Sequence record: PZ787841.1
DNA: 47,035 nt
DNA from: a phage
Reading direction: 5' to 3' (one strand)
Below the pieces are notes generated by a model. The model had not been told where the DNA came from, searched no databases, and worked only from the letters and a program-made list of their open reading frames with translations. Positions 5,880 through 46,781 of the stretch are shown one piece after another. Numbering within the stretch: the stretch's first letter is position 1; each line of letters begins with the position of its first letter. Made by a program: the position numbers and the translations under genes.

Positions 5880-7720
5880 CTATCGCAGAAGCGCCAGAAG
5901 CTCTTCGGGTGAACGGTCCATGCAGTCACGCACATATGCTGGAAGGTCTTTCTTGTCGTGGATGGCCTTGGCGATGGTGACGTCCACAGTGCCACGTGCC
6001 ATCACATCCGTGTATACTACCGAGTTGGTCGACCGATACGGTGGTTGCGGTCCTCCGACTGCATCCGGTCAACGAGGATGAAAGAGTTGGACATATAGAA
6101 CGTGCGGCTGGCCTTGTTCAGGGTGAGGCCCGTGCCCCCGGTCTGCTGGTTCGATACGAAGAACATGGCGTCACCCCTGAAGGAATTTGCGTTTCTGCTC
6201 GTCGCGCTCGTCCGGGTTCAGCCCGCCGTGGTACTGGCACACCGCATCAGCTCCGTACTTCTCGGTCAGCGCTTCCACGATGTCGGCGATTTCGGGTCGG
6301 AACTGGCCCATATAATCATCGGGTGTCCGGCGTTCTCCTCCGCGTACTCCATCAGGTACGCGATTTTCGGGTTCTTGGCGGGTTCGATGATGCGCACGAT
6401 TTCGCGGTGGCGAGTGCTATGCTCGTCGTTCGGGTCGTCCAGCTTCCAGTACGACACATATCCGGCACAAACTTGCTGCAGGGCCGTATAAGCCGCCAGC
6501 ACGTTCTCGCAGACCAGTTCCACGAAGGAATCGGTGACTGCCCAGCACGCTGGGCCAGCAGCACCGAGAGGTCGGCCTGACGCTCCTTCTTCATTTGGTC
6601 GTATATCTTCTTCTGTTCGGCGGTCAGGTCCACTTCCACGGTGGTATACATCTTCGGCGGGAGGTCTTTCAGCACGTCTTCCTTCTTGACTTGGTACACG
6701 TACGGCTTGATGATCTCCATCAGCTCTTCGATATTGGTATACCCAGTGATTTGCTTGTTCTGGAACCCGCCCTTCTCGCAGTAGCGAGCTTGGAACGACC
6801 CGAAGTCGCCCAACCCGATGATGTCCGGTGACAGGAACTGGAACTGCTGGTACAGGTCCATCGGCCCCTGCGAGATGGGCGACCCGCTCATTATTGCCTT
6901 GTATTTGGACTCGCGGCCCAATATCTCGATGTCGATAGCGCGTGATGCGTCGTGACCCTTGATTTTGTGCGACTCATCCACTGCCTGCATGCGCTGATGG
7001 CTGCGGCGGACAAACTGGGAGGTAGCCGCATACGCTTTGCCCTTCGCTTTGCCCTGACTGAGTGACTCGATGCCGACGATAAACACCTTCATCTTGTTCA
7101 TACCAAAGTCAGCATCGTTGACAGTTTGGCCTTCTTCTCAAACCCGGACATGGTGGTGTCGCAAACAAACGCCTCGTACGGCACGCCGCAATGGATAGCC
7201 AGCTCGTTCACCCAGTTGGTACGGAGCGGTACGGGGCAGTAAATGACCAGCGCGTTTACGATACGAGCGCGGAACCGGGCCGAGGACAGGGTAGATCAGG
7301 GTTTTCGATTTGCCAGTGCCCATCTCCATGAAGAACGCCACCAGCGGAGAGGACCAGCTAAAATCCAGCGCGTCACGCTGGAACGGGAACGGGTTTGTCT
7401 TGAAGTTCGTGCCACGTCGGGAACAGTTCGCGCCGGGTGATGGCGACCGAGTTCACGGCCTCGTTGCACTCCTGTATCACTTGGTCACAGATAGAGACGC
7501 CCGGCTTGCCGACGATGTTGTTCAGCAGGTGCTCGGCGTTCCGACGGATGATCGGCACTACCCAAATCGAGCGGCGTTTCTCAAAGCGGCGGTTCGGGAA
7601 GGCACATAATAAGGTTGTGTACGAGATGGACGCCTCGATATGCATACGCCCGGTGTTGTCGTTCAGACTGATTTTCATGTATGCGCCGGGGCGCTTGTTG
7701 GTATTCGTAGAGTAGAACAT
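5880..7720 (-). CDS. SNF2-family (SF2) helicase/ATPase
   Basis: Motif I GTGKS (ORF 7138..7341), DExH box DESHKIKG (ORF 6352..7101), C-terminal QSEDRNHRIGR motif VI after stitching. Confidence 0.8.
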
Positions 7721-7778
7721 GTTTACATCTCGCTCATTTCTTTCGGTTTGATTTCGGAGGTAGTCAGCTTATCCACCT

Positions 7779-9273
7779 TCACATACCATACATTAGACAG
7801 ACTGCTTGCCGACACGTAGCTTGGTATGCTCGCACCCGTGTTGTTTGAGGATGACCCACACCTGCGGCCCCTTGACGTCGTCGGCACGGTTCTTCTTCAG
7901 GTAGTCGAGGAAGTCCTGACCACGGAAATATACCATGCGGGTTCCGTCCCGGTCCTGCACGACAGGCGTGCCATAGTGCAGCGATTCGCGGTCGTTCTGG
8001 TCCAGCCCGTCCGATTCGAGGTCGGTCTTGGCGAGAAAGGACTGGAGGCGATTCCACATAACACCCTCGATGGTGGCCTCTTCCGGCGCTTCTATCGAAT
8101 ACCGCTTTCGCCATCAGGTCGTGGAGTATCACCTGCCAGCGGTCGTTCTTCATCGGCGGTATCAGGCGGGTCAGTGCCTCGGCGACAGCTTCACGTACGG
8201 CCCGGAAGTCCATCAGCTGGTGGTCAGCAGGTTGACACGCGCCCCATCCACGTACATCGACCAGCGCACTGGCGTAGTCATGTATTTTTCGAGCGGGCCG
8301 AAGGCCGGGAGCGCCCCCATGTCCATCTCGCCCTTCTCCTCCGGTGTGATACCGTATTTGCGGGTCACACACTCGAACGAGCGGCACAGTGATTTCCAGG
8401 GTTCTTCCTTGCACTTATAACGATAATCGCGACGCCCGGCACTGGCGATGACCTTCTTCGCCTCGGCGTGTGACATCGGTTCGGTGAAGATGCGGGCATT
8501 CATATCGAAGGCGCGGTCAACGTAGGTTTCCGGGAAAGCCTGCTTAAGGTAGATGACCATGTTATACATGGCCTCGTTCCGGTGGCCCTTGCCGACCGTC
8601 CGCTATCGATACGCTGGATGCACGGCGGCGCTTCCTGATGCTCGTTATCGCCCTTCTCTATCAGCATGCCCGGCGTGGTGCGGCGAGACTCCGCCACATC
8701 GAGGAAATGCTCGAACGTGATGCGCTTTCCGCCTTCCATGCAGTACCGCAGGCAGTCCGGGTTTTCGGCATCGAACCATGCAAGGTAATCCAGCTTCCCA
8801 GCTGTTGTTCGCCCGTCATCTTGTCCGGTGGCAGGAAATCCTGCTTCGGGAAGACCTCACACCCGCCGTGGCCCAGTTGCACCGCCCACTTAGCCAGTAT
8901 CTTTCTGATGACCGTAGCGCGGATGGTTCGTTGGCGAACAGATAAAGGTGAGCGCCGCCTGACTGGAGCGGCACACGGTCAGCGGGTAGTCCAGCTCGCG
9001 AACCAGCTTTTCCAGTGCATACAGGTCGATGTCCTCGGCGTCACCGTGGGCGTCGATGTCGATGGCACCAAACCAGCAGAAGCCGTCATCCATAATCGGC
9101 ACCAGACCTAGCCCCTTCTTGCCATCGAGGTGGTCGATGAAGTGGTCTATCGTATAGCTTGATTTCTCGGTGATACTGTGGCGCGAACTCGGCACATTCG
9201 GCGTAAACTGACCGAAAGACCGCTCGTTGCCACGGAATAGTTGGACGAACCGCAACAGGTTTCTTTCGTCCAC
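7779..9273 (-). CDS. Primase, archaeo-eukaryotic (PrimPol-like) type, with PriCT-like C-terminal region
   Basis: FGAIDIDAHGD motif in ORF 8890..9273; cysteine-rich region KCKEEPW...CRSFEC in ORF 8213..8569; position next to the helicases. Confidence 0.5.
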
Positions 9274-9420
9274 TAGCGTTTCCTCGTTATCTCTTTATCT
9301 CGGTGCCCATTAAAGCACAGATGACGCCGCCCGCGCTAGTATCCTCTGTTCGGCACCACTCTTTCACGCCCGCGAGAGGTTTTTACTGTCTACCGCCGAC
9401 GACGACGGGGCCGACGGCAT

Positions 9421-9620
9421 CCAGTGTTATCTGTTCCGGGTCTGTTCCATCTGTTCCATCCTGTTCTGGTGGCTGATGGAACGCCTCGTGCCGGGAAGGA
9501 CGCGGTCTGTAGAGGTGTTGTTCCATTGTTCCATCTCGGAACGTATCGGTCGATATTGTCGGCCGCCGACAGCTTCGATTCTCGCGGCGTAAAAACGGAA
9601 CAGAGGAACAGCATCAGAGT
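9421..9620. repeat. Iteron-rich element, copy A: repeated TGTTCC/GGAACA half-sites flanking the perfect palindrome TGTCGGCCGCCGACA
   Basis: ctgttcc x4 at 9430-9468; gttccattgttccatc at 9512-9527; palindrome at 9556-9570; ggaacagaggaacag at 9597-9611; about 90 bp near-identical to 33866-33962. Confidence 0.7.
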
Positions 9621-9645
9621 GCTGGAAAAGGCAGTCCTCATCTTT

Positions 9646-9745
9646 CAGCAAACGAGAAGCCCTCCGTGAAGGTCGAGCATCGAGGCGGTGGGGTAGTGGC
9701 TGGACCCCCTCTTCATGTAGAGGAAAGTACCAGCCGTTTGAACAG
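9646..9745. repeat. Conserved ~100-bp element, copy A, directly 3' of the tail-fibre gene
   Basis: Ends gcaaacgagaagcCctccgtgaa and gaaagtaccagccgtttg match the 34948-35055 copy with the same 52-nt spacing; internal hairpin cctct-N6-agagg. Confidence 0.6.
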
Positions 9746-9762
9746 GAGGGATATCTACTGGG

Positions 9763-12750
9763 TCAGGCTAGCCAGCGCGTGGTCTGGGATGGCGGTTTCG
9801 GAATAGATGTCATAGTCCGCACCATATTTTTGTACAGAAGATACATCCCCAACCCACGGAAGATTTCACCCGTGTAGAACCCGAAGGCCATGCCGTTATC
9901 GTTCGATTCCCTCGGTGCCGGACTCCATGCTCCGTTGATGTTCTTGCCGGGAATGCTGGTCACCGTGAGTTGTCCGCAAGCTCCCTGACGCACCCCTCGA
10001 TAAGCACGTCTAGGTCTGGCACCGTTGACCCCGCCATCTTCGAAGAACTGCACCCGCGAGGAAGAGGCCGCACATATGGCCCGTGAAGTCGTCGGCACTG
10101 GTACTGACGGCCCGGTCGATGGGAAATCGGTCGGTGTCGCCTTGTACTTGCCCGAGTACACGATAAGCCAGTATGCCCAGTTCTCTACGTACTGCTCCAG
10201 CTTCTCCGGCACAGGCTGACCACGCACCTTAAGCTCATACCATGCGCGTGCTGCGGCGTTGAACGCACGGGGCTGATACCCGGCCCATGGGTGACCATCA
10301 CCCCAATGATAGTTGGTCCATGTGTCCGGAGGCCCGTACTTGTAGTTGTCCCAGCGGTTCCAGATGTAGGCTGCACAGCCCGGACCCAGTTCACCAATCA
10401 TCGTGGAGTAGGCCGCTTGGCTGTCGTGCATGAACTGCACCCGATTGTGAACCACGTGGCGTACTTGGACGGGTCTTGATGGATGGTATACATGAACGGG
10501 TACTCGATACCCCGGATACGGCATACCGTGCCACGCTCCATCTGTTCTGTACCTTCCGAGTAGATGTTCGAGAACGGGATAACACCCGGCGCATAGGCCA
10601 GTGAGTCCAGACGGTTAATCATCGTGCAATCACCGATGACCGCCTTGTACGACTCCGGGCAGTTCAGCATCATACGGTAGGTCATCGTCCAGCCGTTGGG
10701 GATATTGTATAGTGGCGGCACGTCGCTTACCACGTAGTAGCTGAAGTTGGCGTTCGGCGTGTTGGAGTCCAGCAGGATAGTTATCTGGTCAACCGCCACC
10801 ATGTTCGGCGTGCTCGGCTCCGGGTCGGCCTCGGTTCCGCCATCCGGGTGGTCAGGCTGGTAGCCGGACAGTGCTGCATCAGCCGGGTTAACTCGACGGT
10901 CGCCCAGTTGCCACGAGTAGCCGGGAGCATCCACCACCAACGCCAGTTGTCGCCGTCAAGCATACGCATGTTGAAGTCTTGGTCGGCTTTTACACACGAT
11001 CTTCTTCGGAATGACTGCTTCTTCGTTGGTCAGCCAGAAGCCAATCACGAAGCCCGCGTCATCGTCCGGGAAGTGCGCGTTGATCACCGTAGCCTGCCGC
11101 CCATCGTGGACGTTGGTTTCGAACGCCTCGGCCCACGTGCAACCACCGTAGTCGGTCACAGCACGCGCATCTGCAACCATGTAGTCGTCATCAGTAGCCG
11201 GGTTGGTCATCAGTGCCAGCGACGTGATGGGGATATCACGGGAAAACAGGTGTCATGCGATGGACTTCGGCAGGGCCAGTCCATACCATGTCGGGTTCGG
11301 CACTTCCTCCTTCGTGGGTGACACGTCCAGCATAACCTCGATGCCGACCTGCTCCCCGGTGTCGCCGATGCCACCATAGGTCGCACGGATTTTGGCGTTG
11401 TAGTCGACGCGGAACCATACCGATTGCTGCTCCATATAGTGCTGGGCCGAGCGGTCCACAGCGACCGTGATGTAGCCCGCAGCGTCGCGCCCGTACTCGA
11501 TGACCGCCGTGTTGGGGTAGCTGATCGTAGCCGATGCCATCGGTAAACGGCGTGTTAGCTACCACCGACTGGCGGAAGAACTTGTCGAGGCTGTCGATAT
11601 AGGTGTACTCGTGGCTTGTGTAGAAGGCACAATCGCACGCCTGCTTATATTTAGCCTCGCCAGTGATGCGCCACAGGAGGTAGCAGCTATCGATGAACCA
11701 AAGCTCGGCATCTGCCGCGTTCCCTAGCTGGTTGTACGACGGAGGCGTGGCCTTCAGCTGCTGAATGGCATATGCACCGGGCGGTTGTGCCATGGTTCAT
11801 TCCGCGCAAACATGTAGCCACCCTGCGCCACTGGTACACGTGATGCGTAGTTGAACAGCCATACCCCGTTTACGGTCGTGTCCTTGAGCTGAATAGTGCC
11901 GAGCTGCGCTGGCTGCGTAGCCGCCGTCGATGATGTCGCCCGCATCGACGTCGAGATCTTGTTCCCGGTCCATGCGATTATCCAGTCCACCGGGTATTCT
12001 TTCGCCTTCGTATCACCGCCTGACCACACCGGAGTGTATACGTCGCCGAGGTACGCCTGCCAGTTAATCCACGCGGAGGATTTCCACGGCTCGGTGACGC
12101 CCGTCGTGATGCGGTGGGAGTCGTACCGTCTGCCAGTTAATCTGCCCGGCGACGTCTTCCTTGATTTTCTGCACTGACGCGTTGATGGCTTCCCACGTCA
12201 TGTGGCCCCGGTGGGCGAACGTCGCGGTGTCCAGCCATTCACCGAAGAACGGTGCGCCCTGTGGGATTTTGGCCCGACCATTGGTAAACACAAGCGGGAC
12301 AGACTCGAACCCACCATGGGTAGCATCGACCGGGTCGATTGGGTAGTGGGCCAGAATCGGTTCTTTGCCGTTTACCAGCCAGTTGCAGATGTAGCGCTTT
12401 GGCGTGGTCGGCACTGGTTGCCCGGCGTAGAAGTAGGCAATATACGCATCCCGAGCCTTTTTCGCGGCGTTGAGAAAGGTCACGTCACGAGTAGCCAGAT
12501 ACATATGGCAGTAGCCGATGATATGGAGTGCCTGACCTTCGGTCGCAGCATCACCGTTCGGCTGGTACTCGGCACGTGTCATGCCGATGAAGTGGCGGTT
12601 GTTGGCGAGTACGCCCTCGTTGTTCTGCAGATAGTGCTGCACCTGCGCGTCGTTGGTGTCGCCCGTATTCCGGCGAGCAAAATCCTGATGCCCATAGGCA
12701 AGAGAAAGAGCGGCGGCAAGTGCGCCGCCGTTAGCAGTATATAGTGACAT
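9763..12750 (-). CDS. Large tail-fibre / tailspike-like protein (about 1000 aa, many frame breaks)
   Basis: ATG at 12750 (MSLYTANGGALAAALSLAYG...); contiguous minus ORFs 12064..12750, 11754..12029, 11236..11793, 10398..10940, 9763..10524; sits after the J-like gene. Confidence 0.45.
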
Positions 12751-12820: not shown

Positions 12821-15800
12821 TCAACCTTGTTCTGCACATAAGACAGGGACGGCACAAGGCCGTTGGGCCACTCTGACGTTGCCGGGCCACGTGACTTTAT
12901 TGGCCCCGGTGCCCTGCTTCAGAAAGAGAACTACTTCCTGTGCGGTGTCGAGCAGCGTCGAGGTGCCGGAAAGAACGACCGTGCACTGCGCCGAGTTCAG
13001 CGTCACGTTGAAGTGCGACGCCAGCGACAGGTTTATGGTCGCCGTAGCTGCCCCCGCCACGTCGCGCTTGCGATATAGCCCATATGCCTGCGTCGGGCCG
13101 GGGTCCGGGTCTTCCCCGGTCGCTTCCTCCAGCAGGTCTACCAGCCGTTTCCATGAAGGACCGGAGAACTCCGACCCATCAGCCAGCTGCACGGTGATGT
13201 TGCCCGGCGAGGAGAAATCTTCTGCCAGTTCAGCTTGTCGAAGATGGCGGCACGTAGCCGATAGTGCACATCATACGACATCTGGGCCGGAACCTCGAAC
13301 AGGAGCGACTGGGGCAGCACGTACCAGCCCAGACCCCCGGTCGTGGTGCCGAGGTACGGCTTGACCACGGTCAGTTCTGTATCACCGAGGACGTCCTCCA
13401 CGGTCAGGAGGTAGTTTACCCCGCCGACCGTGGCGCTGATGATGTCGCCCGCTTTACACTCGGTGGCAAAAACGGTCTGTGTACGAGTGACCGTCTTCGA
13501 TCCTGCGTTAATAAGATAGTACCTGCTGGCATCTTTGACCCCTTAAGACCATTTAGAGTTGTAGCGCGAAGTCACCATCAGTGAAATCGGGGAAATACTG
13601 GCGCGCCCGGTGTGGCTGATGAACACGCGAACCTCGATGCTATGGTTGGTGTTCCGCGCAAGGTCGACCGAGCAGGTCAGGGTCCGGGAGCTGGAACCTT
13701 CGCCACTGTGTGATGCCGTTATACCGATCGACACTCCGTTAACGAAAATCTCTACACCGCGAGAGCGCACAGTAGGTTTCCGGCGCTGTCGGTATAGCCT
13801 GATGCCGACATCGGGGCCGTCGCAGCAGGGTACGCTCCACGTCCGGGTCGGAGTCCAGCGTATAGTTGTAGTCAGTGCCCCAGTTTTCTATGGCGTTTCC
13901 GTAGTTAATCGTGACCACCTTCAGGTCGCAGAAGTTGCCACGGATGTTGCCCGCCGAGAGAGTGCCGAGGATAGTGCAGTTTTCGCGGATGATGACGTTG
14001 TTCAGGTCGCCATAGTTGGCATAGGTAGAACCGCGCACCGTCACGTTGGCGAAGTTGGCGTTCCCGTTCTTGTTGATGATCCAGACCGACGTTGGACCCG
14101 TTCCAGTTATCCGACTGGATTTGCTGGGCGATCAGTGCCGAGGTGATCAGCGCGTACTTCATTTTGGCGGTATCGATCGAGGCGTTGCGAATCATCGCGT
14201 CGTCGTAAGTGTCTGCCCGCTCGCGATAGCGAATACCAGTTTGTAGTTGCCCGGCGTGGTGCTGTTGTAGATGCCGAGCGGTCAGCCTTGAACAGCATGG
14301 TAGATTTCTAGCTGCCTGAACCGTCCGGTTCGATGGACATCGCCATACCAGCGCTGTAGTATTTGCCGCCACGGTTGATACCGAGGTTCAGGGTGTATGA
14401 CGCCTTCGCCGTACCTTCACTGGTCACGATGGAGGTCATCTTCTGCTGCACTGATGCGGTCAGGTCGTTTGCCACGCCCGGTCAGTTCATCGATGTAGCG
14501 GCCCTGCGCGATGACGTTTGCTTCAAGGTCAGCCATAGCCAGCTGGTCGTTGGCGATGGTAGTCTTGACTGTGATGATGTCAGCACGCACCTCGCCGTAG
14601 TTGCTCCATTGGTGGTCTACGTTAGCACCTGTTGAGCGGGCTTCGAGAATAGCCATAGTTCATCTCGATTGGCTTCATCAGGTTCTGGTAGGCCGTGGTG
14701 GTCTGGAACTCTGCGTCGATCATCGGGAGCAGGTCGGCGATGTCGGTGTGGCGTAGTACCTCTAAACTCGAGGAAGTCGGACGCACCGAAGGCGTCGCTG
14801 CACGGATATACCACCAATAGGTGTGGCTGTTCTTGAGGCCGGACTTGGTCCAGATGGTCCCCTGCCCTTCGTGGTTGGCACCAGCTCGACGGTCGCGGTC
14901 GCGGCGTTCGGCAGACGTGATTCCCCGGAAGTCCAGAAGTCGTAAGTCACCGACACGTTCGACAGGTCAGCGGAACGTGGCTTGATAGTGACGGCGAAGT
15001 AGCCTTGCTCATCTCGGCACCCGTCGGTTTGGACGGTGCACGGGTGGCGATGTCAACGGTGGTTTCGACCGAGCGTTGACCGCGAGCGTTGACCGCCAGC
15101 ACACCCACGGTATACTCGCCACGTGGTAGACCATTCAGTCGGCAGACCGTCCCCGGAACCTGTACCGTGTAGACAATGGACCCGGCTTTGCGCACGATGA
15201 CGTTGTTGTACACGATGTCCGACGTGTTGTTCCAGTCAGAGCACCCTGTACCACCTCGCCAATCTCCATCACTTGGTACTGCAGGTTCCACGGAGGCGTC
15301 ACTTGACGGTTACCGGAGGCACTGTCAGGTCGGGACGAAGTCGACGGTTTGCCGATTGCGTCATCCCACACGGCGACTGTTTCCTGACGCAGGGTCAGTC
15401 CGACACCGTTGACGCCGTTCAGCTCCCAGCTGGTGATGCGGAACTCTTGGTTGATGATGCCGAGGGTCTTGATGGTCGGCTTCACGTAGTAGCCCGGACG
15501 CATCGCATACCCGAAGTAGTTGGCGGTCAGCTTGATGGTGCGGCCCAACCGGGAGCGGTTGAGGGTGATTTGCGCCAGTCGCTGGGCGTGCCACTCGTCG
15601 GTCACGAAGCGGTATTTCTTGTCCTGCGTGAACTCGTTCCCGTCTTCTTCTACCCACTGCTCGATGCGCACAGGCGGGAAGTCGGCTTCGGTGTAGTCCT
15701 GCTCCTTGTCTACGAAGGTGCCGGTGACGATATTCACCTTCTGGTTATACGCGGTTTCAGGTGTGATTTCGACGTCACTGATGATCATGTCGTCGTTCAG

Positions 15801-16489
15801 CACCATCGTCGCCGGGCCATAGTATGCACCGACCAACAGGCCGTGTTTACCTGCCATATAAGTCGGTTCGCCTGCGCAAGCTTCGTGCATGTCGTCGAGG
15901 ATGGAGGAGATGGCCTCGTCCGCTTCGAACTGCCCGTTGATTGTGTAGCGCTTGGAGATGGACGAATCCGCGTTCAGCACTGGCTGGTCAGAGATGTTCG
16001 CGGCCTCGTAAACATCGGGTCGTCCACGTCTTCGGGTTCAACACCAAGCATCGGTGACAGGTAGAAGTCGCGGATAACCAGTGCAGCGTTGTCGGTCCAC
16101 TTGGTCACGCCGTCACGTGGGTCGTATACGCGTTTGCCGCGAATAGTCGCCTTGATGTTCGGGATACCGGAAGGGAACTTGTCTTGGTCGAACTTGAGCG
16201 ATACGACGATGTAGGCCAGACCCTTGCCTATCATGTCAGGTTTCCACTCGTTGCAGCGGTCGAGCAGGTACTGCGGCACAGTTGTGGTTGTTGTTGTTAG
16301 ACGCCACGTGGCGTACTCACCATACGCGTTGATGATTTCTTCGCCGAGGTAGACAGTCTCTACGGAGTCGATTTCGTGTGCCGCCAGCACGATGACCAGA
16401 TGGACCCACTCGTGGTCGTCTGCCTCTTGCTCGCCCGGCTGCTCCTGCGCAAGCTGCAGCAAGCCCGACGTGGCGACACGCCCATACAC
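12821..16489 (-). CDS. Host-specificity protein J-like central tail fibre / tip attachment protein
   Basis: J-like N-terminal region in ORF 15974..16489 (KGLAYIVVSLKFD...GKRVYDPRDG...TDNAALVIRDFYL); fibronectin-III-like segment in ORF 14947..15291; lambda-like gene order. Confidence 0.7.
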
Positions 16490-16499
16490 ATACGAGCAG

Positions 16500-16703
16500 G
16501 CTCCCGCTGCTGAACGGAGAACCTGCTTTCTTTCTGACTGGCTGCTGTAGTTTCCGATGCTGGGGACTGATGTTTTCGAGAAGGCTACCCGCTACGGTAG
16601 CCAGTGCCCCGATGACCACGGCTGCAGTCATCGAAATCACACCAACCGCACCAGCCACCGAAGCACCGACCGCGATGACTGCGGCGATAATCGCTGGTGG
16701 CAT
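16500..16703 (-). CDS. Small hydrophobic protein (lambda I-like position, or the N-terminus of the J-like protein)
   Basis: MPPAIIAAVIAVGASVAGAVGVISMTAAVVIGALATVAGSLLENISP in ORF 16317..16703. Confidence 0.3.
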
Positions 16704-20609: not shown

Positions 20610-21186
20610 CTACGCTTGAAGACATACTATTTCCTCATGATTCGGTCGAGCTTCGATTATCGCATCCACTTCATATGGCATGAGTGATATGTTCATTAGC
20701 TCGGAGTAGGATTTTATCTCGGTATAGCTGATGGGTTGACCGGAAAAGAGTGCTGCGAAAGTGTTCCAAAGGTAAAACATTTCTTTATTTAGCTTCACTT
20801 CATCAGGTGCGCCTTTGGACGACGACCCAGCGTTTCTATTTGCGCCCAGTGCTGGCGAAGAGTGGTCCCCTTTCATTCGGGGACCATTTTATTCAGCTCT
20901 GTTTCGGCTTGCGCGTACGCGTAGAGGTTGTCGAGGGCTTGGCGAAGAATGGCTGCGCCGGGAGATGAGTATCCACCGCATCAGCCAGATAAGGCGCACC
21001 AGCTATCAGCTCTTCCGCCGCTTCGAATGAGAATGGCACATCGAACGACCAGCCACGGATACACGAGGCCAGCACGTTGAACCGGGCGTCGTAGATTGCG
21101 TTCCGGCGTTGCTCGGCTGTTTCCAGTGCCGCGATGGATACGCCGCGCTGCTCCTGCTCATAGCGGGAGGCACGGATTCTTTTCAT
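20610..21186 (-). CDS. Tail assembly chaperone (G/GT-like), two-frame arrangement
   Basis: ORFs 20893..21186 and 20610..20876 in different frames between the major tail and tape measure genes. Confidence 0.45.
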
Positions 21187-33338: not shown

Positions 33339-33461
33339 TTAGTACGCCACGCCAGAGTGCAGACGGGTTTTCATGTAGCGGGCCACGATAGCCTTCGCTT
33401 GTTCTGCGGTGTCTGCGTCGTAGGTCGCGATGGTCTTGCTGCAAAACTTGAACTTGGTCAT
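33339..33461 (-). CDS. Small protein (40 aa) behind a consensus promoter
   Basis: MTKFKFCSKTIATYDADTAEQAKAIVARYMKTRLHSGVAY; leader CAACCaCCCGGAGATgcAGAGATG resembles the other promoter-proximal leaders. Confidence 0.35.
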   Translation of the reverse strand: MTKFKFCSKTIATYDADTAEQAKAIVARYMKTRLHSGVAY

Positions 33462-33501
33462 CTCTGCATCTCCGGGTGGTTGGGGTCGTGCTGTAATCTT
33501 T

Positions 33502-33563
33502 ATTATACCAAAGCCCCAACTCCCTGTCAATGGTCGATGCACGAGGATGCGACCTTTGTCACA
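33502..33563 (-). promoter_or_regulatory. Consensus sigma70 promoter TTGACA-17-TATAAT (minus strand) with an upstream TGTGA-N6-TCGCA palindrome
   Basis: Plus-strand attata at 33502-33507 and tgtcaa at 33525-33530; palindrome (plus strand tgcgacctttgtcaca) at 33548-33563. Confidence 0.55.
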
Positions 33564-33747
33564 CGAAGCACGGGTTCAAATAGTTGGGATGTGGCACTCG
33601 TCACGCAGCACTCGGAGGTCGGTCTGTGTTCCATCGAGCGGTCGTTCGAGCATAAGAGGAGGGGGACTCGACGGAACGTTCTTTTTATGTGTATCTACAT
33701 AAGCTAATCTTGACAAGATAGGCACTCTCATGCGTTCGGGTCTTTTT

Positions 33748-33962
33748 GTTCCATTGCGTTCCACCATCGTTCCACTATGCCCGGAACAACCCTCCTAAAC
33801 ACGCGCGTAAAAGGGAAACCGCGTCGGTCGCGGACTCTCTCGCCTCGGACGGCAGTTCAGCTATGTCTGTTCCATTGTTCCATCTCCGAATATTAAGTCT
33901 CATATTGTCGGCCGCCGACAGTTTCGATTCTCGCGGACGTAAGAGTGGAACAGGGGAACAGG
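33748..33962. repeat. Iteron-rich element, copy B (same architecture as 9421-9620)
   Basis: tgttccat/cgttccac repeats at 33758-33780; gttccattgttccatc at 33869-33884; palindrome TGTCGGCCGCCGACA at 33906-33920; ggaacaggggaacag at 33947-33961. Confidence 0.7.
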
Positions 33963-33989
33963 CCATCGAGCGCTGCCCATGGCGCTGCT

Positions 33990-34910
33990 ACCCCGGCCCC
34001 AATCCCCCTTTTTAATGTATTCAGCAGACCTGAGACCGTGGTTTTCAGCTGCTGCTCCCGGCGCTTGGCCACAGTGCCGCTTATCGTGTTCCCACAGGCC
34101 ACGACCATGCCCGACAGCTCCAGGACCGACAGGAATTTGTCCTTGCTCTCCATCAGTGCGACCATCAGGCTATCGACCAGCATCACATCACCATCATCCA
34201 CAGGTCGGTCGACCACTACCGCCTGCAGTGCTGCCTTAATCCCCATTCACGGTACTGGCGACTGTGAACTGCTCACGACCAGCTGCGTTTGTCTCTTGCT
34301 CCCGACATCGGTCAGGGAGAGCACGTATTCGTATTCATTTTCGTCTTCTTCACAGTCCCACCCCGTCCATCAGCTCATTAACACCGTCACCTCACGAGCG
34401 CCCATCGGCAGCTCGACCCGATACCAAGCCTTCAGTCCGGTCTTCGCAGTCGAAGCGAGTGCGTCCATTGCCACCCGGTGGTATTCGTTCACCAGAGGAA
34501 CCAGCCACGGGGTCACGCCAGCCAGAGCAGCAATCAGCTGGTTTTCCAGCATCTCGGCACTCAAATCCTGCCCAGCACCCGCAGGTCAGGACAGGCTTCG
34601 CTGCCACGGTTGCTCGAGCTTCCACCCACCAGCACCGACACATCAGCGTATTTTCTCGTATAATCGGTCCCCGCTATCGCAGTTATGGTCCGCACGCCAC
34701 CAGTGCTGCGTACAAGCTCACCACCCACCGCAACCACGTTCCCACAGTCCCGGATAAGCATCTCGGTCAGTCCACGCTCTACATCCACCCCACAACGTCT
34801 GAACGCCTCGACCGTCTTTCCCAACCTCTGTAGCCGTACCAACGACCGTCGACTCGAACCCATCAGCCCAGATGGTGGTTATCTGGAATTTCTGACCTTC
34901 GCCTTTAGTA
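33990..34910 (-). CDS. Cluster of about three small hypothetical ORFs lying between the two halves of repeat copy B
   Basis: Minus ORFs 34561..34863, 34370..34564, 33893..34246; no motif recognised. Confidence 0.3.
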
Positions 34911-34947
34911 TTCATTTTGTTCACCTTTTGCATCCGACAGTTTATTT

Positions 34948-35055
34948 CAGTATTTAGCAAACGAGAAGCTCTCCGTGAACCTCTCGTATTGACCCGCTAC
35001 ATCAGTATTCCCGACCCCCCTCAGGTCAAGGGAAGTACCAGCCGTTTGCACTCTT
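34948..35055. repeat. Conserved ~100-bp element, copy B, directly 3' of the AP2-like gene
   Basis: gcaaacgagaagcTctccgtgaa ... 52 nt ... gaagtaccagccgtttg; internal hairpin ccct-N7-aggg. Confidence 0.6.
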
Positions 35056-35449
35056 GCGTATTCTCCACCACGTCGAGGTTTTCACCCTCTTCTCTGGACT
35101 TCCTCAGGGCGTCGACTACATTAGCCGAGTTTGTACCTTGCTCAGGATTTCGGCCTGAAGGTAGGCCACGTGGGGTTCTGGACAGTCCGACCATCGGATA
35201 CAGCACCACAGACTCGAAGGCCCGCAGGGTATCTTTCAGCCGCTGGTTGGTGCTTTTATTAATCAGGTCACGGAAGGGTGCTGCGGTGCGGTAGGTGGTG
35301 AACAGATGGACGTAGGCACCGACAGACGTCAGTCCACGTGCCACGAAGTAGGTGTTGCGGTCCCCGTGCATCAGGCGGGCCATCCATGTGCCATCGCTGC
35401 GTGCGATATGTACATAGACCTTCGGGGTGTTTTTGGTGTCTTTCATGTT
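35021..35449 (-). CDS. AP2-like DNA-binding domain protein
   Basis: MKDTKNTPKVYVHIARSDGTWMARLMHGDRNTYFVARGL...AYVHLF (W-A-R / YLG-like AP2 pattern); no catalytic domain seen. Confidence 0.35.
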   Translation of the reverse strand, partial: NMKDTKNTPKVYVHIARSDGTWMARLMHGDRNTYFVARGLTSVGAYVHLFTTYRTAAPFRDLINKSTNQRLKDTLRAFESVVLYPMVGLSRTPRGLPSGRNPEQGTNSANVVDALRKSREEGENLDVVENTQECKRLVLPLT

Positions 35450-35494
35450 GTCATCTCTTATCCAGCAGATCCAGCGGCTTGCCGGGGGAAGTTT

Positions 35495-35542
35495 AGTATA
35501 GCACACTTCCCCCAACCTGCTAACCTATGAACAACGTTGTTT
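35495..35542 (-). promoter_or_regulatory. Sigma70 promoter TTAGCA-17-(TGc)TATACT (minus strand) with upstream perfect palindrome AACAACGTTGTT
   Basis: Plus-strand agtata at 35495-35500 and tgctaa at 35518-35523; aacaacgttgtt at 35531-35542. Confidence 0.45.
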
Positions 35543-39635: not shown

Positions 39636-40020
39636 TCAGGCCGACTTTTTGGTGCGCTTGGCATATGACCCGCGCGGTTTGTCGGATACACGGCACTCGT
39701 TCCCGGCGTAGTTGAAGCCGTCGTCCTCGCGGAACTCGGCCCGGCCCGGATGTCGTACTCTTTGATGTTGGTAGATGGCACGGGTTGACGTGCTCACGGG
39801 CGCGGCGAGTGGCACCGAACTCGGTGGACTCACCGTAGTGGTTGCGGTTGCAGGTCGGGCAGTTGATGTCGGGATGACGGCGTTGTGGAAGTGTGCATCA
39901 TGGTAGCCGTCCTTCAGCGTGGCGGTGGCGCCGCACGAGTCACAAATAAGGGTGGCGGTGAAGTCGTTCCCGTGCTGGTGGGTGATGGTCTGGACTTTTC
40001 TCTGTATCTCCGGGTGGTGC
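39636..40020 (-). CDS. Zinc-ribbon protein
   Basis: CDSCGAT...CPTCNRNHYGE after stitching; GGAGA RBS before the start. Confidence 0.3.
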
Positions 40021-40035
40021 TGGGTTTATTAGCCT

Positions 40036-40200
40036 TTATACTGGATTGCGGTGCCGTCGAAGTAGATACACATAACCATAGCACCCTTGCGCAGCAGAAC
40101 TGAACCGAGGTCGGTTCTCGAACTCGGTCCAACCCTGCGCGGTCGCTTTTGCCACCGATACTGCCTGCTGGTTAGTTGCTTTCATCTCTAAATCTCCGGT
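40036..40200 (-). CDS. Small protein behind promoter b
   Basis: CAACCGGAGAtTTAGAGATG leader, MKATNQQAVSVAKATAQGWTEFENRP... Confidence 0.3.
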   Translation of the reverse strand, partial: TGDLEMKATNQQAVSVAKATAQGWTEFENRPRFSSAAQGCYGYVYLLRRHRNPV

Positions 40201-40228
40201 TGGTGCTTTGTGCTGCTTCTGAATTTTT

Positions 40229-41863: not shown

Positions 41864-41981
41864 CCATAAGACCCCCGCCAGCAGGATCACTGCCAATACT
41901 ACCGCGAAGCCGTACCATGTTGCGCGGCCTGCTTCACGTGCTGGGTTCTCGGTGGTGTACTCGAACAGTGTATTTGTTCAT
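41864..41981 (-). CDS. Small membrane peptide behind promoter c
   Basis: CAACCCGGAGATgaAGAGATG leader, MNKYTV... then WYGFAVVLAVILLAGVLW after a frame break. Confidence 0.3.
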
Positions 41982-42022
41982 CTCTTCATCTCCGGGTTGG
42001 TGGGGGCTTTGCCCCTGAATTT

Positions 42023-42083: not shown

Positions 42084-42501
42084 GTTTACCCCGCTGCACT
42101 GCCTCCTTCTCGCGTCTGGTCATCATGGTTTTTACCCTAATGGTGGTGTCGATGACCTGCTCGTTGTAAAGCAGGTCCATCCACTGGATGATCGGGCCAT
42201 GTCGCCCTCGAACTTCTGCGACTGAATCTGCCAGTAGGTGACGTGGGGTAGTACATCACCGTCCGGGTCAGGTTGAAGCGCACACTGCGCATTTTCGGGT
42301 CGATTTCGAACTCACAACCCTTGAACTGCCGCCGCTGTCGTCCATCTGCTGGACCAGAGCGGAGGCAATGCCCATAACTGGGCTTGTGTTGTTTTCAGCT
42401 TGGCAGTCATTAGTATTCCACCTTAGGCAGGGATTCCATTTCATAGCGGCGCATAGCGCCACGCAGCACGTTTCCGAGGTTCATGCGTTGCATTCCGGGG
42501 T

Positions 42502-43348
42502 TCAGATGCCGTAGCGGTTCTGCAGGTCGGAGAGGCTGCAGGTTGTTTTCTTGTTGCCAGTCCCCACGTGGTCGATGCCCAGCACTCGCAGCACTTCGGC
42601 GGTGTAGCGGTAGACGTCGGAGATATCCATGCCGCGCAGAGCAGACGCCACGTAGTCCACGATGTAGATGGTCTTGCGCCCGGTAGTAGTGACGCCCAGC
42701 CCGACCGTGTAGCGGTCCATGTCCGGGTCAACCTTGTAGTTGCCGTTGAAGTCCACGCCCCAGTCGCACGCTTCGCAGTTGCAGACGGTGCTTTCGTGTT
42801 CCAGCACTCCGTCCGGGTTCACCTTGCCGAATACCAAGTCTTTGCTGTTGACGCTCGGGCAGGCTTTGAGGGCGAACAGATTAGCGCGGGTGATGCGCGG
42901 TGCTTTGGTCACGCGTTCGATGCGCTCGGCTTCTTTGCGCTCGGCTACACGTTCCATCACTTCGCGGCCTTTCGCGTTGCCACGGTTCATCAGCATAGCC
43001 GCCATGCCGGATGGCTTGCGCGGGGTTTCGTCGTGCTCTTCGGCGATATGCTCTGCCAGCGATTCGGCGCTCAGGAACTCGCAATCGCACTTCTCGCACA
43101 GGTGGGTGTTGTCGAGGTTGAAGGATACCTCGGGTGATTCTTGTCGCCAGCGGCGGACAGGGTTTCGATGGCTTGGTCGAAGCCAACTTCAGCGAGAGCT
43201 TCGAGCGCGGCTACGGTCGCCGGGTCGCTGTCTACTTTGCCAGAACGGATTTTGCGGGTTGCACCATTTTCGTCGGTATAGGTCACCCAACCGTTATTGA
43301 TGCTCGCGCGACTTGCACTAATTTGCCGTCTACGATAGCCTTGCTCAT
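42502..43348 (-). CDS. Zinc-finger protein (about 280 aa), candidate early regulator
   Basis: AGGAGA RBS and ATG at 43346-43348 (MSKAIVDGKLVQVARASI...); HLCEKCDCEF...EHIAEEH and CNCEACDWG motifs; ORFs 43071..43286 and 42502..43005. Confidence 0.4.
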
Positions 43349-43461: not shown

Positions 43462-43755
43462 GAACGGCACCATAAAGGCCGTAGAAATGGCAGGCTAACA
43501 GCACATGTATCCGGCACTGGGTGTCATGCCGCAGGAGTGGCAGCACGTGATACAACGTCGTGCCTTTCCCGTTTATGGACGGAGTATACCAGCGGTTCAT
43601 GTGTTTCCACGCGTCCCGTATATCAGCCAGCTCGTTCCCGATATCGTCCGGTATACCCTTGTAGTAGTCGAGGAAGTCATCGACCGCCACATGGTGGGCC
43701 ATCTCCGCCGTGCTGGTCTTTGCAATGAAATTCCCGTCTTTCGACGGGATGAGGA

Positions 43756-44169
43756 TCATACCCTCGCTAACAAACCGAATAGCCATTCGCGTTTAACCTC
43801 TTCGCTGAAGGAGTGGCGGACGGCGTCCAAGTCCATCGTGGTCGGTCTTGATGGAAGGGTCCACGCCAGCGTGCCCTCGATGGCATACCATCCGACACTC
43901 CGACTTCTACAAACAGCCAGACATTGCCCGCCATCCCGTGGCGGCGAAGCCATGAACGTTGGCCCTGCGAAGTGGGTCAGGTCCAGTCGGCCCTTGTCGT
44001 CCAGCTCCCCAGCCTTCATCTCGATAAACCCGTGTTTTGTGCCATAGGTGAAGCACAGGTCAGGGAATGATGGCGCGGTGGCTGGCGACTCGATGCGGTC
44101 GTATGCCACGTTCATGTGCCGAAGGACCGGGCGAAGCTGGTCCCACATTTTCTGCTCCGGTTTACGCAT
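43756..44169 (-). CDS. VRR-NUC-type (PD-(D/E)xK) nuclease
   Basis: FPDLCFTYGTKHGFIEMKAGE in ORF 43756..44214. Confidence 0.45.
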   Translation of the reverse strand: MRKPEQKMWDQLRPVLRHMNVAYDRIESPATAPSFPDLCFTYGTKHGFIEMKAGELDDKGRLDLTHFAGPTFMASPPRDGGQCLAVCRSRSVGWYAIEGTLAWTLPSRPTTMDLDAVRHSFSEEVKREWLFGLLARV

Positions 44170-44743: not shown

Positions 44744-44854
44744 CTTGTTATACCTTCTTCGAGTTGTGTTGTGACAGATAGTGCCGTTTGCGGGCGTCCT
44801 GCGAGGAGAACCGTCTACCGCAGACTACACAGAGATATTTCTCTATCGGTATGT

Positions 44855-45660
44855 TCAGCGGCTGCTGGACCACTCCGACACTCTGGCTACCACACTGATG
44901 CCCTTATGAACCACCGGGGCGACACCTCGAGTGCGACCGCCATCAATCACATGTTGATGCGTGCCGTCTTCCAGCTTCTCCCACACCCGTTTCTCATTCA
45001 TTGCCATCTTGTTGGCTACGGCCTTGGCGATATCGATCCCGGCTAGGTGTCCGATGTCGAGCAGCAGGATAGCCACATCAGCGAATTCCCCGGCGTCGAG
45101 GTATTTGCTGGTGTCCAGCTCGGTTAATTCCTTCTTCAGCTTCAGCACTGCTTCGCCGATGGTGCGCTCGGGGAACGTGCGGTCGGCCCAGCCGGAAATC
45201 AGCTGTTGGACTTCGGCGATTGTTCCGGTTGAGTATTGGCGAGTCGCTCGCGTCTGTCCATCTTGTAGCGCTTTCTCAGGCACTGGTTGCACACGTAGTC
45301 CGACTTCGCCAGACGGCTGGGGCTGAATGTCACGTCCGACTGCAGGCACACGCGGCACACGGGCGGTCCAGCGGCGGTCATCTTGGTCTGGTCGGTTTTC
45401 GGCAATCCATCGGATAAACATAAGTCCACTTGCGGCGTGCGCGGCGTGGTGGAGGTCGGTTTCATGGTAATCGTTGCTCTTCTCTAATTCCAGTATGCGA
45501 CGCTCACTCCATCCAGAAGGCGCTCGACTGTCAGCCCGCGCCAGTTTCATTTCCCGTATTTTGCCTCACCCGTCGCCAGTACCCGCGCCACCTCCTCGGT
45601 GAAGCGCGGGTCAATCAGGCTAACGGGGCTTTGTCGGCATCGAGTTTCGATTGCTTTCAT
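44855..45660 (-). CDS. mazZ: MazG-like nucleotide pyrophosphohydrolase, MazZ candidate; an N-terminal KYG..NW region and an internal CxxC...CxxC segment may belong to it
   Basis: C-terminal GEAVLKLKKELTEL...GEFADVAILLLDIGHLAGIDI...NKMAMNEKR (ORF 44855..45550); ATG at 45658-45660; zinc-ribbon segment in ORF 45199..45465 in another frame. Confidence 0.5.
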
Positions 45661-45673
45661 CGCCCCTGCTCCT

Positions 45674-46781
45674 TATTCCTGCTCGTGTTTCATGTCGGTG
45701 AAGATGTCGTTCACGGTCGCGCCGTAGCCGTAGTATGTAGCCAGCGGCATATTGCCCGGAATCCCGGCGACCATTGCGGCACGTTCGATGGTTCCCACCA
45801 CTCAGCCACTTCGTCCGGCGTCATGTAGTTGGAGAAGTTGAGGAATACTCATCCGGGCGAATCGACTTCGAGCGCCGCCAGCGTCTGCAGGTAGCCGAAG
45901 GTGAAGATGCGGCGCGGGAGCTTGGTCACGGTGGTCAGTTCCGCTTCCATTCCGAGGTCTTTCTTCCAGTCCAGTTCCTTCTGGTCTTCGTAGTACGGGC
46001 CGGACCAATTTGCTCACCTGCTCGTTGTTGTAGCGGTTGGCTACGCGGATTGGGTAGGTGCGCATCGTGGCGATCGTGGTCTCGACGAAGGCCAGCGGCA
46101 GGTTGACGTCGACACAGACCTGTGCCGGGGTGCACTCGCGGGAGGTCGCATACGGGTAGAAGCCGTTGTTGATGCCGAGGCTGAGTCCCTGCGCACCCTC
46201 CACCGAATGCGTTCCGCGTCGTAGACTACCGACATATACTCGGCGTTGTTGGCGGTGCTGGTGGAGATGCCCGCTTCACGGATTGGCTTGCTTGTAGATG
46301 TGCTCTTCCATGTAGTCGGCGTTTCCGCCTACCGTGTTGTTGTCGTCCGGGTTGCGCGATGGATTTGGAAATCATCGCAGCACCGCAGCCTTTCTTGGTA
46401 GACCCGATTTTGGTCATCGGGCCTGCTTCCTCTTCCACGTGCTTCTGCATGATAATAGCAGCGGAGGAGTGTAGCATGATGCGTTTGCCGCGCAGCAGGT
46501 CCACACAGGACAGGATTTCGTCGCGCAGCAGTTCGACGTTCATCTGGCTACCGGGGCCAATCGGCACGGTGGTTAGCTTCGGCGATACGATGCCGTTTGC
46601 CAGCATGCAGTGGACAAGCTTGCGGCCTTCTGCATCGATGAGGTGTGGCCTGCGTTGGCACTCCACGCGGTCATCACTACGTCCGGCTGGTCGCGCGGGG
46701 CGACGTAGCCCGCAATGAGACCCTTGCCAGTGCTGCCAACTGCGCGTCAACGATGATAGTGGCTTTTTGTGTTGCTTTCAT
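45674..46781 (-). CDS. purZ: Adenylosuccinate-synthetase homologue, PurZ candidate (N6-succino-2-amino-2'-deoxyadenylate synthase)
   Basis: ATG at 46779-46781; P-loop-like GSTGKG, ANAGHT (GHNAGHT-like), LVHCMLANGIVSP, FEGAQGLSLGINNGFYPYATS (ORF 45802..46203); stop TAA at 45674-45676. Confidence 0.7.

Follow-up and report, generated by a model that had tools for sequence, protein, structure and literature searches.

A Non-Coding Gene-End Element Conserved in Two Copies in a Family of 2-Aminoadenine Siphophages

The window analyzed here (the whole stretch of 47,035 nucleotides in record PZ787841.1) comes from a relative of Salmonella phage PMBT28, a 2-aminoadenine ("Z-genome") siphophage, and it carries two copies of a unit of about 105 nt, each at a gene end. 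The unit is a family-specific non-coding motif, hitherto undescribed, and with its placement at two sites it forms a conserved part of the genome architecture of the PurZ siphophages of enterobacteria and Acinetobacter; we know of no previous description of unit or layout. Our tentative proposal, which we hold with something short of even confidence, is that the unit is a sense-strand RNA element that marks operon ends, either as a leaky terminator or as a processing or stability site. The small genes beside the second copy, which had been described in an earlier note on this sequence as an inserted cassette, are the family's variable early-gene slot.

Results

The Window Phage and Its Relatives

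In megablast and blastn searches, the phage records that matched the window were those of distant relatives (73–78% nucleotide identity): Salmonella phage PMBT28, Pseudomonas phage PSA28, and the Klebsiella phages VLCpiS6a and vB_Kpn_K21lambda1. These relatives are siphophages of ~47–48 kb that have a single coding strand and encode PurZ, DatZ, and MazZ, and the genes of PMBT28 have been demonstrated to make dZ (2-aminoadenine) DNA (PMC12944874). Two homologues from this pathway were located in the window:

45682–46781, purZ homologue
44754–45660, mazZ-like homologue

The real genes of the window all lie on the minus strand, and the unit is a 3' element of these minus-strand genes. Nearly all of the long genes, including those encoding the 1000-aa tail fiber, the primase, the helicase, the tape measure protein, and the DNA polymerase, are broken over two to six frames when compared with the intact PMBT28 proteins. 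The window sequence thus contains an indel every few hundred bases, and errors of this kind may be present in the unit sequences as well. Because the reading frames are split relative to PMBT28, ORF counts in the window are unreliable, among them the "roughly three small ORFs" that the earlier note had counted beside the second unit, and ORF-level readings of this sequence are in general unsafe. Comparisons covered eight complete relatives: PMBT28, PSA28, VLCpiS6a, K21lambda1, one IMG/VR contig, Providencia phage Kokobel2 (68% primase identity), and the Acinetobacter dZ phages Barton and SH-Ab 15497 (~59–61% primase identity).

Two Units and Two Iteron Elements in the Window

The features on which the analysis rests are as follows.

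9755–9757, minus strand: stop codon TAG of the tail-fiber gene, directly upstream of unit A (tblastn of the PMBT28 tail-fiber protein)
9634–9750 (core 9644–9745), minus strand: unit A, non-coding gene-end element (repeat families D11 and D14; covariance-model match)
9420–9615, minus strand: iteron element A, upstream of the primase gene (GTTCC(A/G) words in both orientations)
9273, minus strand: start of the primase gene, downstream of iteron element A
35523→35495, minus strand: sigma70-like promoter upstream of the gene at 35021–35515 (promoter scan)
35021–35515, minus strand: small gene ending inside unit B (ORF list; synteny with PMBT28)
34943–35058 (core 34953–35051), minus strand: unit B, the second copy (repeat families D11 and D14; covariance-model match)
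33620–33965, minus strand: iteron element B, paralogue of iteron element A (shared 35-nt core)
33502–33530, minus strand: perfect sigma70 consensus promoter (TTGACA-17-TATAAT with TG), downstream of iteron element B (promoter scan)

The two copies were found by a repeat search as two pairs of matching segments, one at 9644–9683 and 34953–34992 (80% identity) and the other at 9707–9743 and 35015–35051 (81% identity). The offsets of the two pairs are 25309 and 25308, and so the conserved ends keep their spacing within 1 nt; by our boundaries this spacing is 55–56 nt, and not the 52 nt given previously. A covariance model built from the relatives gave exactly two matches in the window, both on the minus strand, with 67 bits for unit A at 9634–9750 (E = 4e-14) and 80.6 bits for unit B at 34943–35058 (E = 2e-17). 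The two-unit repeat is thus non-random, lying far outside chance, and the places at which the earlier note had put the two copies were borne out. That note had also stated that both copies sit directly after a stop codon. This is correct for unit A, which follows the stop of a tail-fiber gene whose product ends in ...LTQ*, matching PMBT28, but unit B overlaps the end of its upstream gene, the last ~10 codons of which are covered by the 5' part of the unit. That gene is the positional counterpart of PMBT28 gene 42281–42616, for which we found no Pfam or PHROG family.

Along the minus strand, copy A runs from the tail-fiber stop through unit A (~9750→9634) and the iterons (~9615→9420) to the primase gene, which starts at 9273. 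In copy B the order is the gene at 35515→35021, unit B (35058→34943), ~0.95 kb of genes, the iterons (33965→33620), and the promoter at 33530→33502. The last iteron word of copy A ends at 9611 and the unit begins at 9644, a gap of ~32 nt; the corresponding gap in copy B runs from 33961 to 34953 (~0.99 kb), which agrees with the earlier description of a unit close to the iterons in one copy and about 1 kb away, with genes in between, in the other. The iteron elements themselves are paralogous: a 35-nt core is 97% identical between 9553–9587 and 33902–33936 (repeat family D13), and KGTTCCR words cluster at 9432–9602 and 33627–33952. Iteron element A includes the inverted repeat TGTCGGCSGCCGACA at 9557–9571. 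Each iteron element lies upstream of a sigma70 promoter (the PMBT28 equivalent of the promoter downstream of iteron element B is at 43933), and the elements could serve as operator arrays. Candidate sigma54, sigma70, and T4 MotA-box-like promoters inside the unit were examined by eye and rejected, as the spaced -10/-12 elements are not conserved between the copies.

The Layout Is Conserved across the Family

In a profile search, every one of the eight complete relatives had two units, no more and no fewer, arranged in the same way, with one unit after the last tail gene and the other in the early region. In the five PMBT28-like genomes, Kokobel2, Barton, and SH-Ab 15497, the units are oriented with transcription and lie directly after a gene end or overlap it. 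A profile made from the Acinetobacter A copies alone matched both copies of PMBT28, both copies of Kokobel2, and unit B of the window, indicating that the units are homologous family-wide. In a covariance-model search of more distant primase relatives (54–60% identity and below) no unit was detected, and one genome, L035, has only a partial, reduced version.

We measured how far the 3' end of each unit lies from the TGTCG..CGACA inverted repeat with which the iteron element begins. For copy A it was 72, 72, 72, 45, and 72 nt in the five PMBT28-like genomes, and by reading of the sequence it is similarly short in Kokobel2, Barton, and SH-Ab 15497. For copy B it was 1032, 938, 932, 1171, 1172, and 1171 nt in the six PMBT28-like genomes, counting the window, ~0.7 kb in Kokobel2, and ~0.8–1.15 kb in SH-Ab 15497 and Barton. 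Unit B is therefore separated from the iterons by 0.7–1.2 kb of small genes in all eight relatives, which indicates that the gene-filled slot is ancestral to the family and does not result from an insertion specific to the window genome.

Unit A keeps its place directly behind a stop codon when the tail gene before it has no relation to that of PMBT28, which is the case in K21lambda1 and VLCpiS6a; the genes that precede unit A encode the 1000-aa fiber, a tail spike, or a 225-aa protein. The unit thus tracks gene ends rather than particular neighbor genes. Downstream of unit A come the iterons and then the primase promoter. Downstream of unit B, Kokobel2, Barton, and SH-Ab 15497 have a perfect TTGACA-17-TATAAT promoter ~55–70 nt after the unit, whereas in the PMBT28-like clade and the window a promoter scan placed no promoter between unit B and the first cassette gene. 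In the latter genomes, unit B accordingly is not an efficient terminator, and read-through is needed. The surroundings of the unit have the layout of operon boundaries, with a terminator-then-promoter arrangement for unit B in Kokobel2, Barton, and SH-Ab 15497.

Gene Content of the Slot beside Unit B

The slot in the window was delimited by three-frame translation and by tblastn and tblastx comparison with the relatives:

33966–34942, minus strand: small early-gene slot, from unit B to iteron element B
34917→34561, minus strand: g1, frameshifted, with an N-terminus homologous to PMBT28 gene 42975–43214
34564→34370, minus strand: g2 (approximate, three-frame translation)
from 34338, minus strand: g3, a possible gene of ~30 codons (approximate, three-frame translation)
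34246→~33990/33893, minus strand: g4 (approximate, three-frame translation)

Long ORFs on the plus strand of 33966–34942 were rejected as antisense artifacts. Three or four orphan genes are common to the slots of the five PMBT28-like genomes, and all that the window shares with them is the N-terminus of one gene, 52% identical across 23 residues, in a gene that carries a frameshift in the window. Other genes occupy the slot in Kokobel2 and the Acinetobacter phages. Pfam and PHROG searches assigned no family to g4 or to the PMBT28 cassette proteins that were scanned. From these sequence comparisons, the slot appears to be an ordinary, fast-evolving early operon in an ancestral position, in which only the gene content turns over.

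The earlier note had proposed that a small gene cassette was inserted into one copy of a duplicated element, and it had set against its own proposal the case in which related genomes show the small ORFs to be ancestral. In all eight relatives, small genes fill this slot. The duplication and the restriction of the genes to copy B stand, and the insertion in this genome does not. At best, an insertion after the duplication would be an ancient event common to the whole family, and it could not be polarized against a loss of genes from copy A.

Sequence Anatomy and Folding of the Unit

On the sense strand, the unit begins with a 5' block, (C)AAACG-N3-GGUACUUCUCC. Its most widely conserved part is a central hairpin, G(C/G)UAC-loop-GUAGC, which is present even in the reduced version of L035; the middle, previously described as different between the copies, thus contains a short GCTAC...GTAGC hairpin that is conserved in the relatives. 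The 3' block differs by lineage: the PMBT28 clade has CAACGGAGAGGCUCCCGUUUGCUAAAG, Kokobel2 has CAAGGAAGAGCUUCUCGUUUGUUAAAG, and the Acinetobacter phages have CAAGGACGGGCCUCUCGUUUUACAAAA. Immediately before this block lies a variable segment, and in many copies base pairing between the two forms a hairpin that ends at or near a U-tract. The stems of this hairpin differ among copies with pairing maintained (GGCCUCUC/GAGAGGCU, AGCCCCCGGAG/CUCCGGGGGCU, AAGCUC/GAGCUU, GAGGCC/GGCCUC, and CGAGAGGUUC/GAGCUUCUCG). It is strong (-12 to -25 kcal/mol) and adjacent to the U-tract in PMBT28-clade B copies, VLCpiS6a A, L008 A, window B, and pB23; PMBT28 A and B, window A, JeffCo A, and SH-Ab B form it weakly or not at all. 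The U-tract tails (UUUGCUAA, UUUUCUAA, UUUUACAA, or UUAUACAA) are short, with 3–4 U, and so fall below a threshold of ~5 U within 8 nt; a simple terminator consensus scan flagged window copy A only.

The end blocks are complementary (CAAACG with CGUUUG and CUUCUCC with GGAGAGG), and 93% of cells are paired. As these blocks hardly vary, covariation cannot test their pairing. Neither copy of Kokobel2 has the end-to-end helix, and SH-Ab B lacks it too. Because GGAGAGG takes part both in the end-to-end pairing (P1/P2) and in the local 3' hairpin, the two are mutually exclusive; most of the sequences are compatible with each. The end blocks are strictly conserved in sequence and nearly devoid of covariation, which is as compatible with recognition by a protein as with pairing.

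Folding of the unit as a whole gave a mixed picture. Against dinucleotide shuffles, folding was significantly better for 8 of the 24 copies (z about -2 or lower; mean z -1.0) but not for several others, among them both PMBT28 copies and window A; whole-unit fold z-scores of -0.2 to -2.2 are unremarkable. RNAalifold returned almost no consensus fold (-3.25 kcal/mol, 4 pairs), and essentially none on either strand. In a proposed 26-pair structure, 76.9% of cells were paired, compared with 74.2% in shuffles, and two-sided changes occurred in the inner variable helices only. Thus, no conserved multi-helix fold backed by covariation was found in the units. The sense fold is more stable than the antisense fold in 19 of the 24 units, by a mean of 3.8 kcal/mol, against a background of -1.7 to +0.7 in random genome windows, and this asymmetry speaks, if mildly, for a role of the unit in the sense transcript.

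The earlier suggestion of a structured RNA 3' element is therefore plausible as regards gene-end position, absence of coding, the compensated hairpin, and the sense folds. It is not supported as a global structure, given the RNAalifold result; the folding and covariation analysis that was called for yielded no global consensus fold, and an end-to-end pairing almost devoid of covariation.

Discussion

A Proposed Sense-Strand RNA at Operon Ends

Four observations lead us to read the unit as RNA: its position at gene ends, the lack of a coding signal (see below), the compensated 3' hairpin, and the greater stability of the sense folds. We infer that the unit terminates, attenuates, or processes transcripts. 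In the mechanism that we propose, the unit would be a non-coding cis element that closes two transcription units in 2-aminoadenine siphophages, with unit A closing the late operon after the last tail gene and unit B following one early gene. It would act mainly as RNA on the sense transcript. In its 3' half, the conserved GCUAC..GUAGC hairpin would be followed by a second hairpin and then by the short U-tract (CGUUUGCU or CGUUUUCU), and the result would be a partial terminator, a processing structure that also protects the 3' end, or both. The 5' block (CAAACG..GGUACUUCUCC) could pair with the 3' block (GGAGAGG..CGUUUG).

The closest known counterparts are intrinsic terminators and 3'-UTR hairpins, which, like the unit, come after the last gene in sense orientation and combine a compensated hairpin with a U-tract; the promoter that follows the unit in several genomes is a further shared trait. 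The unit differs from intrinsic terminators in being conserved over ~105 nt, with invariant blocks far upstream of the hairpin. It also differs in that its U-tract is short (3–4 U), its hairpin is weak in several copies, and genes downstream of it depend on read-through in some genomes.

A more specific version of this proposal, which we consider improbable, is that the unit is a transcription-boundary RNA specialized for phages with dZ genomes, acting as a multi-part terminator or attenuator or as a platform for a phage factor. Since an rU:dZ hybrid has three hydrogen bonds and would be the stronger for it, ordinary U-tract termination should be weakened on such templates, and this could explain why a larger conserved element is found at operon ends. 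Competing end-to-end and local pairings would then tune read-through into the early and replication genes. In a literature search, we found no study that deals with these elements or with how transcription terminates on dZ templates. If the element does control transcript ends, it offers a handle on how the host RNA polymerase is managed on dZ-DNA.

A Possible Protein-Binding Site in DNA

The main rival to the RNA reading, less probable in our judgment, is that the unit is a double-stranded DNA site for a phage or host protein and, with the iterons, makes up a duplicated module for replication origin or regulation. In its favor, the primary sequence of the conserved blocks is invariant and shows almost no covariation. 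The unit and the iterons were duplicated together and are adjacent in copy A of every genome examined, the iteron words co-vary between sub-clades as they would with a co-evolving DNA-binding protein, and the AEP primase gene adjoins module A (unit A with its iterons). Phage P4 ori/crr and plasmid iteron origins likewise have two clusters of short iterons kilobases apart, one of them beside a primase gene, although this likeness concerns the iteron elements and not the ~105-nt unit. In copy B, however, variable genes, often with a promoter, lie between the unit and the iterons everywhere examined, and a separation on the kilobase scale indicates that physical coupling of the two is dispensable. 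Moreover, the unit follows gene ends and the direction of transcription, its sense folds are more stable than its antisense folds, and the stems of its 3' hairpin change with compensation.

A Possible RNA Switch or Antiterminator

We think it rather unlikely that the unit is a regulated RNA switch or a processive antiterminator, that is, a riboswitch or attenuator, or a site in the style of lambda nut and HK022 put. In the switch version, pairing of the end blocks would compete with the 3' hairpin and so set the level of read-through, possibly with adaptation to a dZ-DNA template. The mutual exclusivity of P1/P2 and the 3' hairpin over GGAGAGG would suit such a mechanism, the cassette genes of the PMBT28 clade require read-through of unit B, and the family produces dZ-DNA. 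Lambda nutL/nutR and HK022 putL/putR also occur as two copies per genome in transcribed positions. They resemble the unit in their length of ~70–100 nt and in their combination of blocks and stems, but unit A is at the end of the late operon and not just after an early promoter, and the unit comes with no identified N-like factor.

Several results oppose a switch. We found no covariation in support of an aptamer-like junction, Kokobel2 lacks P1, there is no candidate ligand or factor, and the effect of dZ on termination is at the stage of conjecture. At Rfam gathering thresholds the whole window had no matches, and E-value scans of PMBT28 unit A and window unit B gave chance-level matches only (E > 1). 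A purine riboswitch was accordingly rejected, as no riboswitch family appeared in the whole-window gathering scan or in either of the two unit-level scans. ARAGORN detected no tRNA or tmRNA in the window.

A Possible Released Small RNA

Still more doubtful is the idea that the unit is released as a 3'-UTR-derived small RNA of ~100 nt, in which CU-rich CUUCUCC pairs with Shine-Dalgarno regions. This sequence is conserved, can be single stranded, and is complementary to ribosome-binding sites of the GGAGAAG type, and both the gene-end position and the 3' hairpin with its U-tract would suit such an RNA. Against it, no promoter or processing signal defines a 5' end, and the U-tail is poor for a small RNA of the Hfq type.

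A Mobile Repeat or a Small Protein as Improbable Readings

Two further explanations have very little to recommend them. The first, that a mobile cassette was recently inserted into copy B of the window genome or that the unit is itself a MITE-like mobile repeat, could appeal to the differences in cassette content between sub-clades and to the short inverted repeats at the unit ends (CAAACG/CGTTTG, 6–7 nt only), but it is opposed by the presence of the slot at the same place in 8/8 relatives, by the constancy of exactly two copies at fixed positions, and by the lack of target-site duplications, none of which were seen at the units. The distribution of the unit is likewise that of a family-restricted element: among 185,579 bacterial and archaeal genomes scanned for the pattern there were five matches, none with the rest of the unit; a search of viral and metagenome collections with the exact pattern found units in this phage family only, besides chance matches; and the matches of a 15-base pattern in viral contigs were mostly due to chance. 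ERIC, Correia-type repeats and MITEs, and the PeSL cassettes of T4 are, like the unit, short transcribed intergenic repeats with inverted-repeat ends and adjoining variable genes. The unit differs from them in having two copies only, at fixed orthologous sites, with none in host genomes, and in showing neither target duplications nor presence/absence polymorphism.

The second explanation, that the unit encodes a small protein, we regard as hardly credible: in 20 of 24 copies, one sense frame runs through the unit without a stop, but it is stopped in both Kokobel2 copies and in window A, it has no conserved start codon or ribosome-binding site, and in the B copies the upstream gene reads the 5' block of the unit in a different frame. 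Codon periodicity is also lacking. The variable columns of the unit are distributed over the three codon positions as 35/36/36, compared with 1/1/13 and 1/1/15 in the first 96 nt of the primase gene from the same genomes, and we conclude that the unit is not protein coding. Within the PMBT28-like group, 23–30% of unit columns vary, as against ~40–50% of the third codon positions of the primase gene; the unit is thus under constraint and is better conserved than synonymous sites. Coding sequences have been annotated over the unit in two relatives: the one in PSA28 (QVJ13167.1) is probably spurious, and gene 57 of Barton, whose copy B lies outside the codon-position test, may be spurious as well.

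Z-Genome Genes and Sequence Quality

The window carries two genes that bear on the nature of its DNA:

45682-46781, minus: PurZ homologue, adenylosuccinate-synthetase-like
44754-45660, minus: MazZ-like pyrophosphohydrolase homologue

Because both homologues are present, we classify the phage, by sequence, as a 2-aminoadenine (dZ, Z-genome) siphophage, a divergent relative of Salmonella phage PMBT28. By sequence comparison with the intact PMBT28 proteins, the long genes of the window are split into two to six frame segments (for example at 9755-12750, 5886-9273, and 13543-16703), and across the whole window indels occur at about one per few hundred bases relative to those proteins. The assembly seems unpolished or error-prone, perhaps through a basecalling problem on dZ-modified DNA, and ORF-based findings in the window need caution.

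Conserved and Variable Parts of the Iteron Elements

Every iteron element (short-repeat cluster) across the family opens with the inverted repeat TTGTC-N8-9-GACAAT(AT):

window: 9553-9587 and 33902-33936
PMBT28 (L003): 20850-20880 and 43605-43635
Kokobel2 (L126): ~14150
Barton (L127): ~20605
L128: ~20925
L022: ~2295

The inverted repeat is kept even where the iteron word changes between lineages. The enterobacterial phages and L035 have GTTCCAT, SH-Ab 15497 has GAGCAACC, Barton has GGTAAC/GGTAGC, and L022 has TCTACA. The constant inverted repeat beside differing words suggests two putative binders, a conserved protein and a lineage-specific one on the iterons.

Gene Exchange Upstream of Unit A

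Units A and B are the two copies of a ~105-nt non-coding gene-end element. Sequence comparison indicated that the last tail gene before unit A in K21lambda1 or VLCpiS6a (L123 20519-21817, L004 25662-26339) is unrelated to its PMBT28 counterpart (L003 17674-20676). Despite the unrelated tail genes, the start of unit A keeps its position relative to the stop codon in all three phages, which places the junction of tail-gene exchange just upstream of the unit.

Annotated small CDSs in relatives overlie either the unit or an iteron element:

L101 8094-8264: PSA28 QVJ13167.1
L127 41285-41536: Barton gene 57
L126 39194-39388
L130 392-610

Codon periodicity was absent from the unit in the groups tested, namely the A copies of both clades and the PMBT28-clade B copies. 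Hence QVJ13167.1, which overlies the unit, is probably a spurious annotation.

Early Genes

Plus-strand GC skew is strongly negative (-0.26) at 34001-35000, so the small-gene slot (the early genes between unit B and iteron element B) has a G-rich sense strand. The long plus-strand ORFs at 33945-34757 and 34264-34833 were rejected as antisense artefacts, the genes of the slot lying on the opposite strand.

A 20-nt motif (repeat families D1/D4) is repeated in the window where minus-strand early genes start:

33461-33480
39999-40018
40185-40204
41981-42000

Its reverse complement, ACCACCCGGAGATGCAGAGA, looks like a conserved leader with a ribosome-binding site. A similar leader, GGAGATTAGAGATG, lies downstream of perfect TTGACA-17-TATAAT promoters in relatives, and Kokobel2 carries three tandem copies of ATCTTTTGTACCC (L126 13400-13440) between unit B and the next perfect sigma70 promoter.
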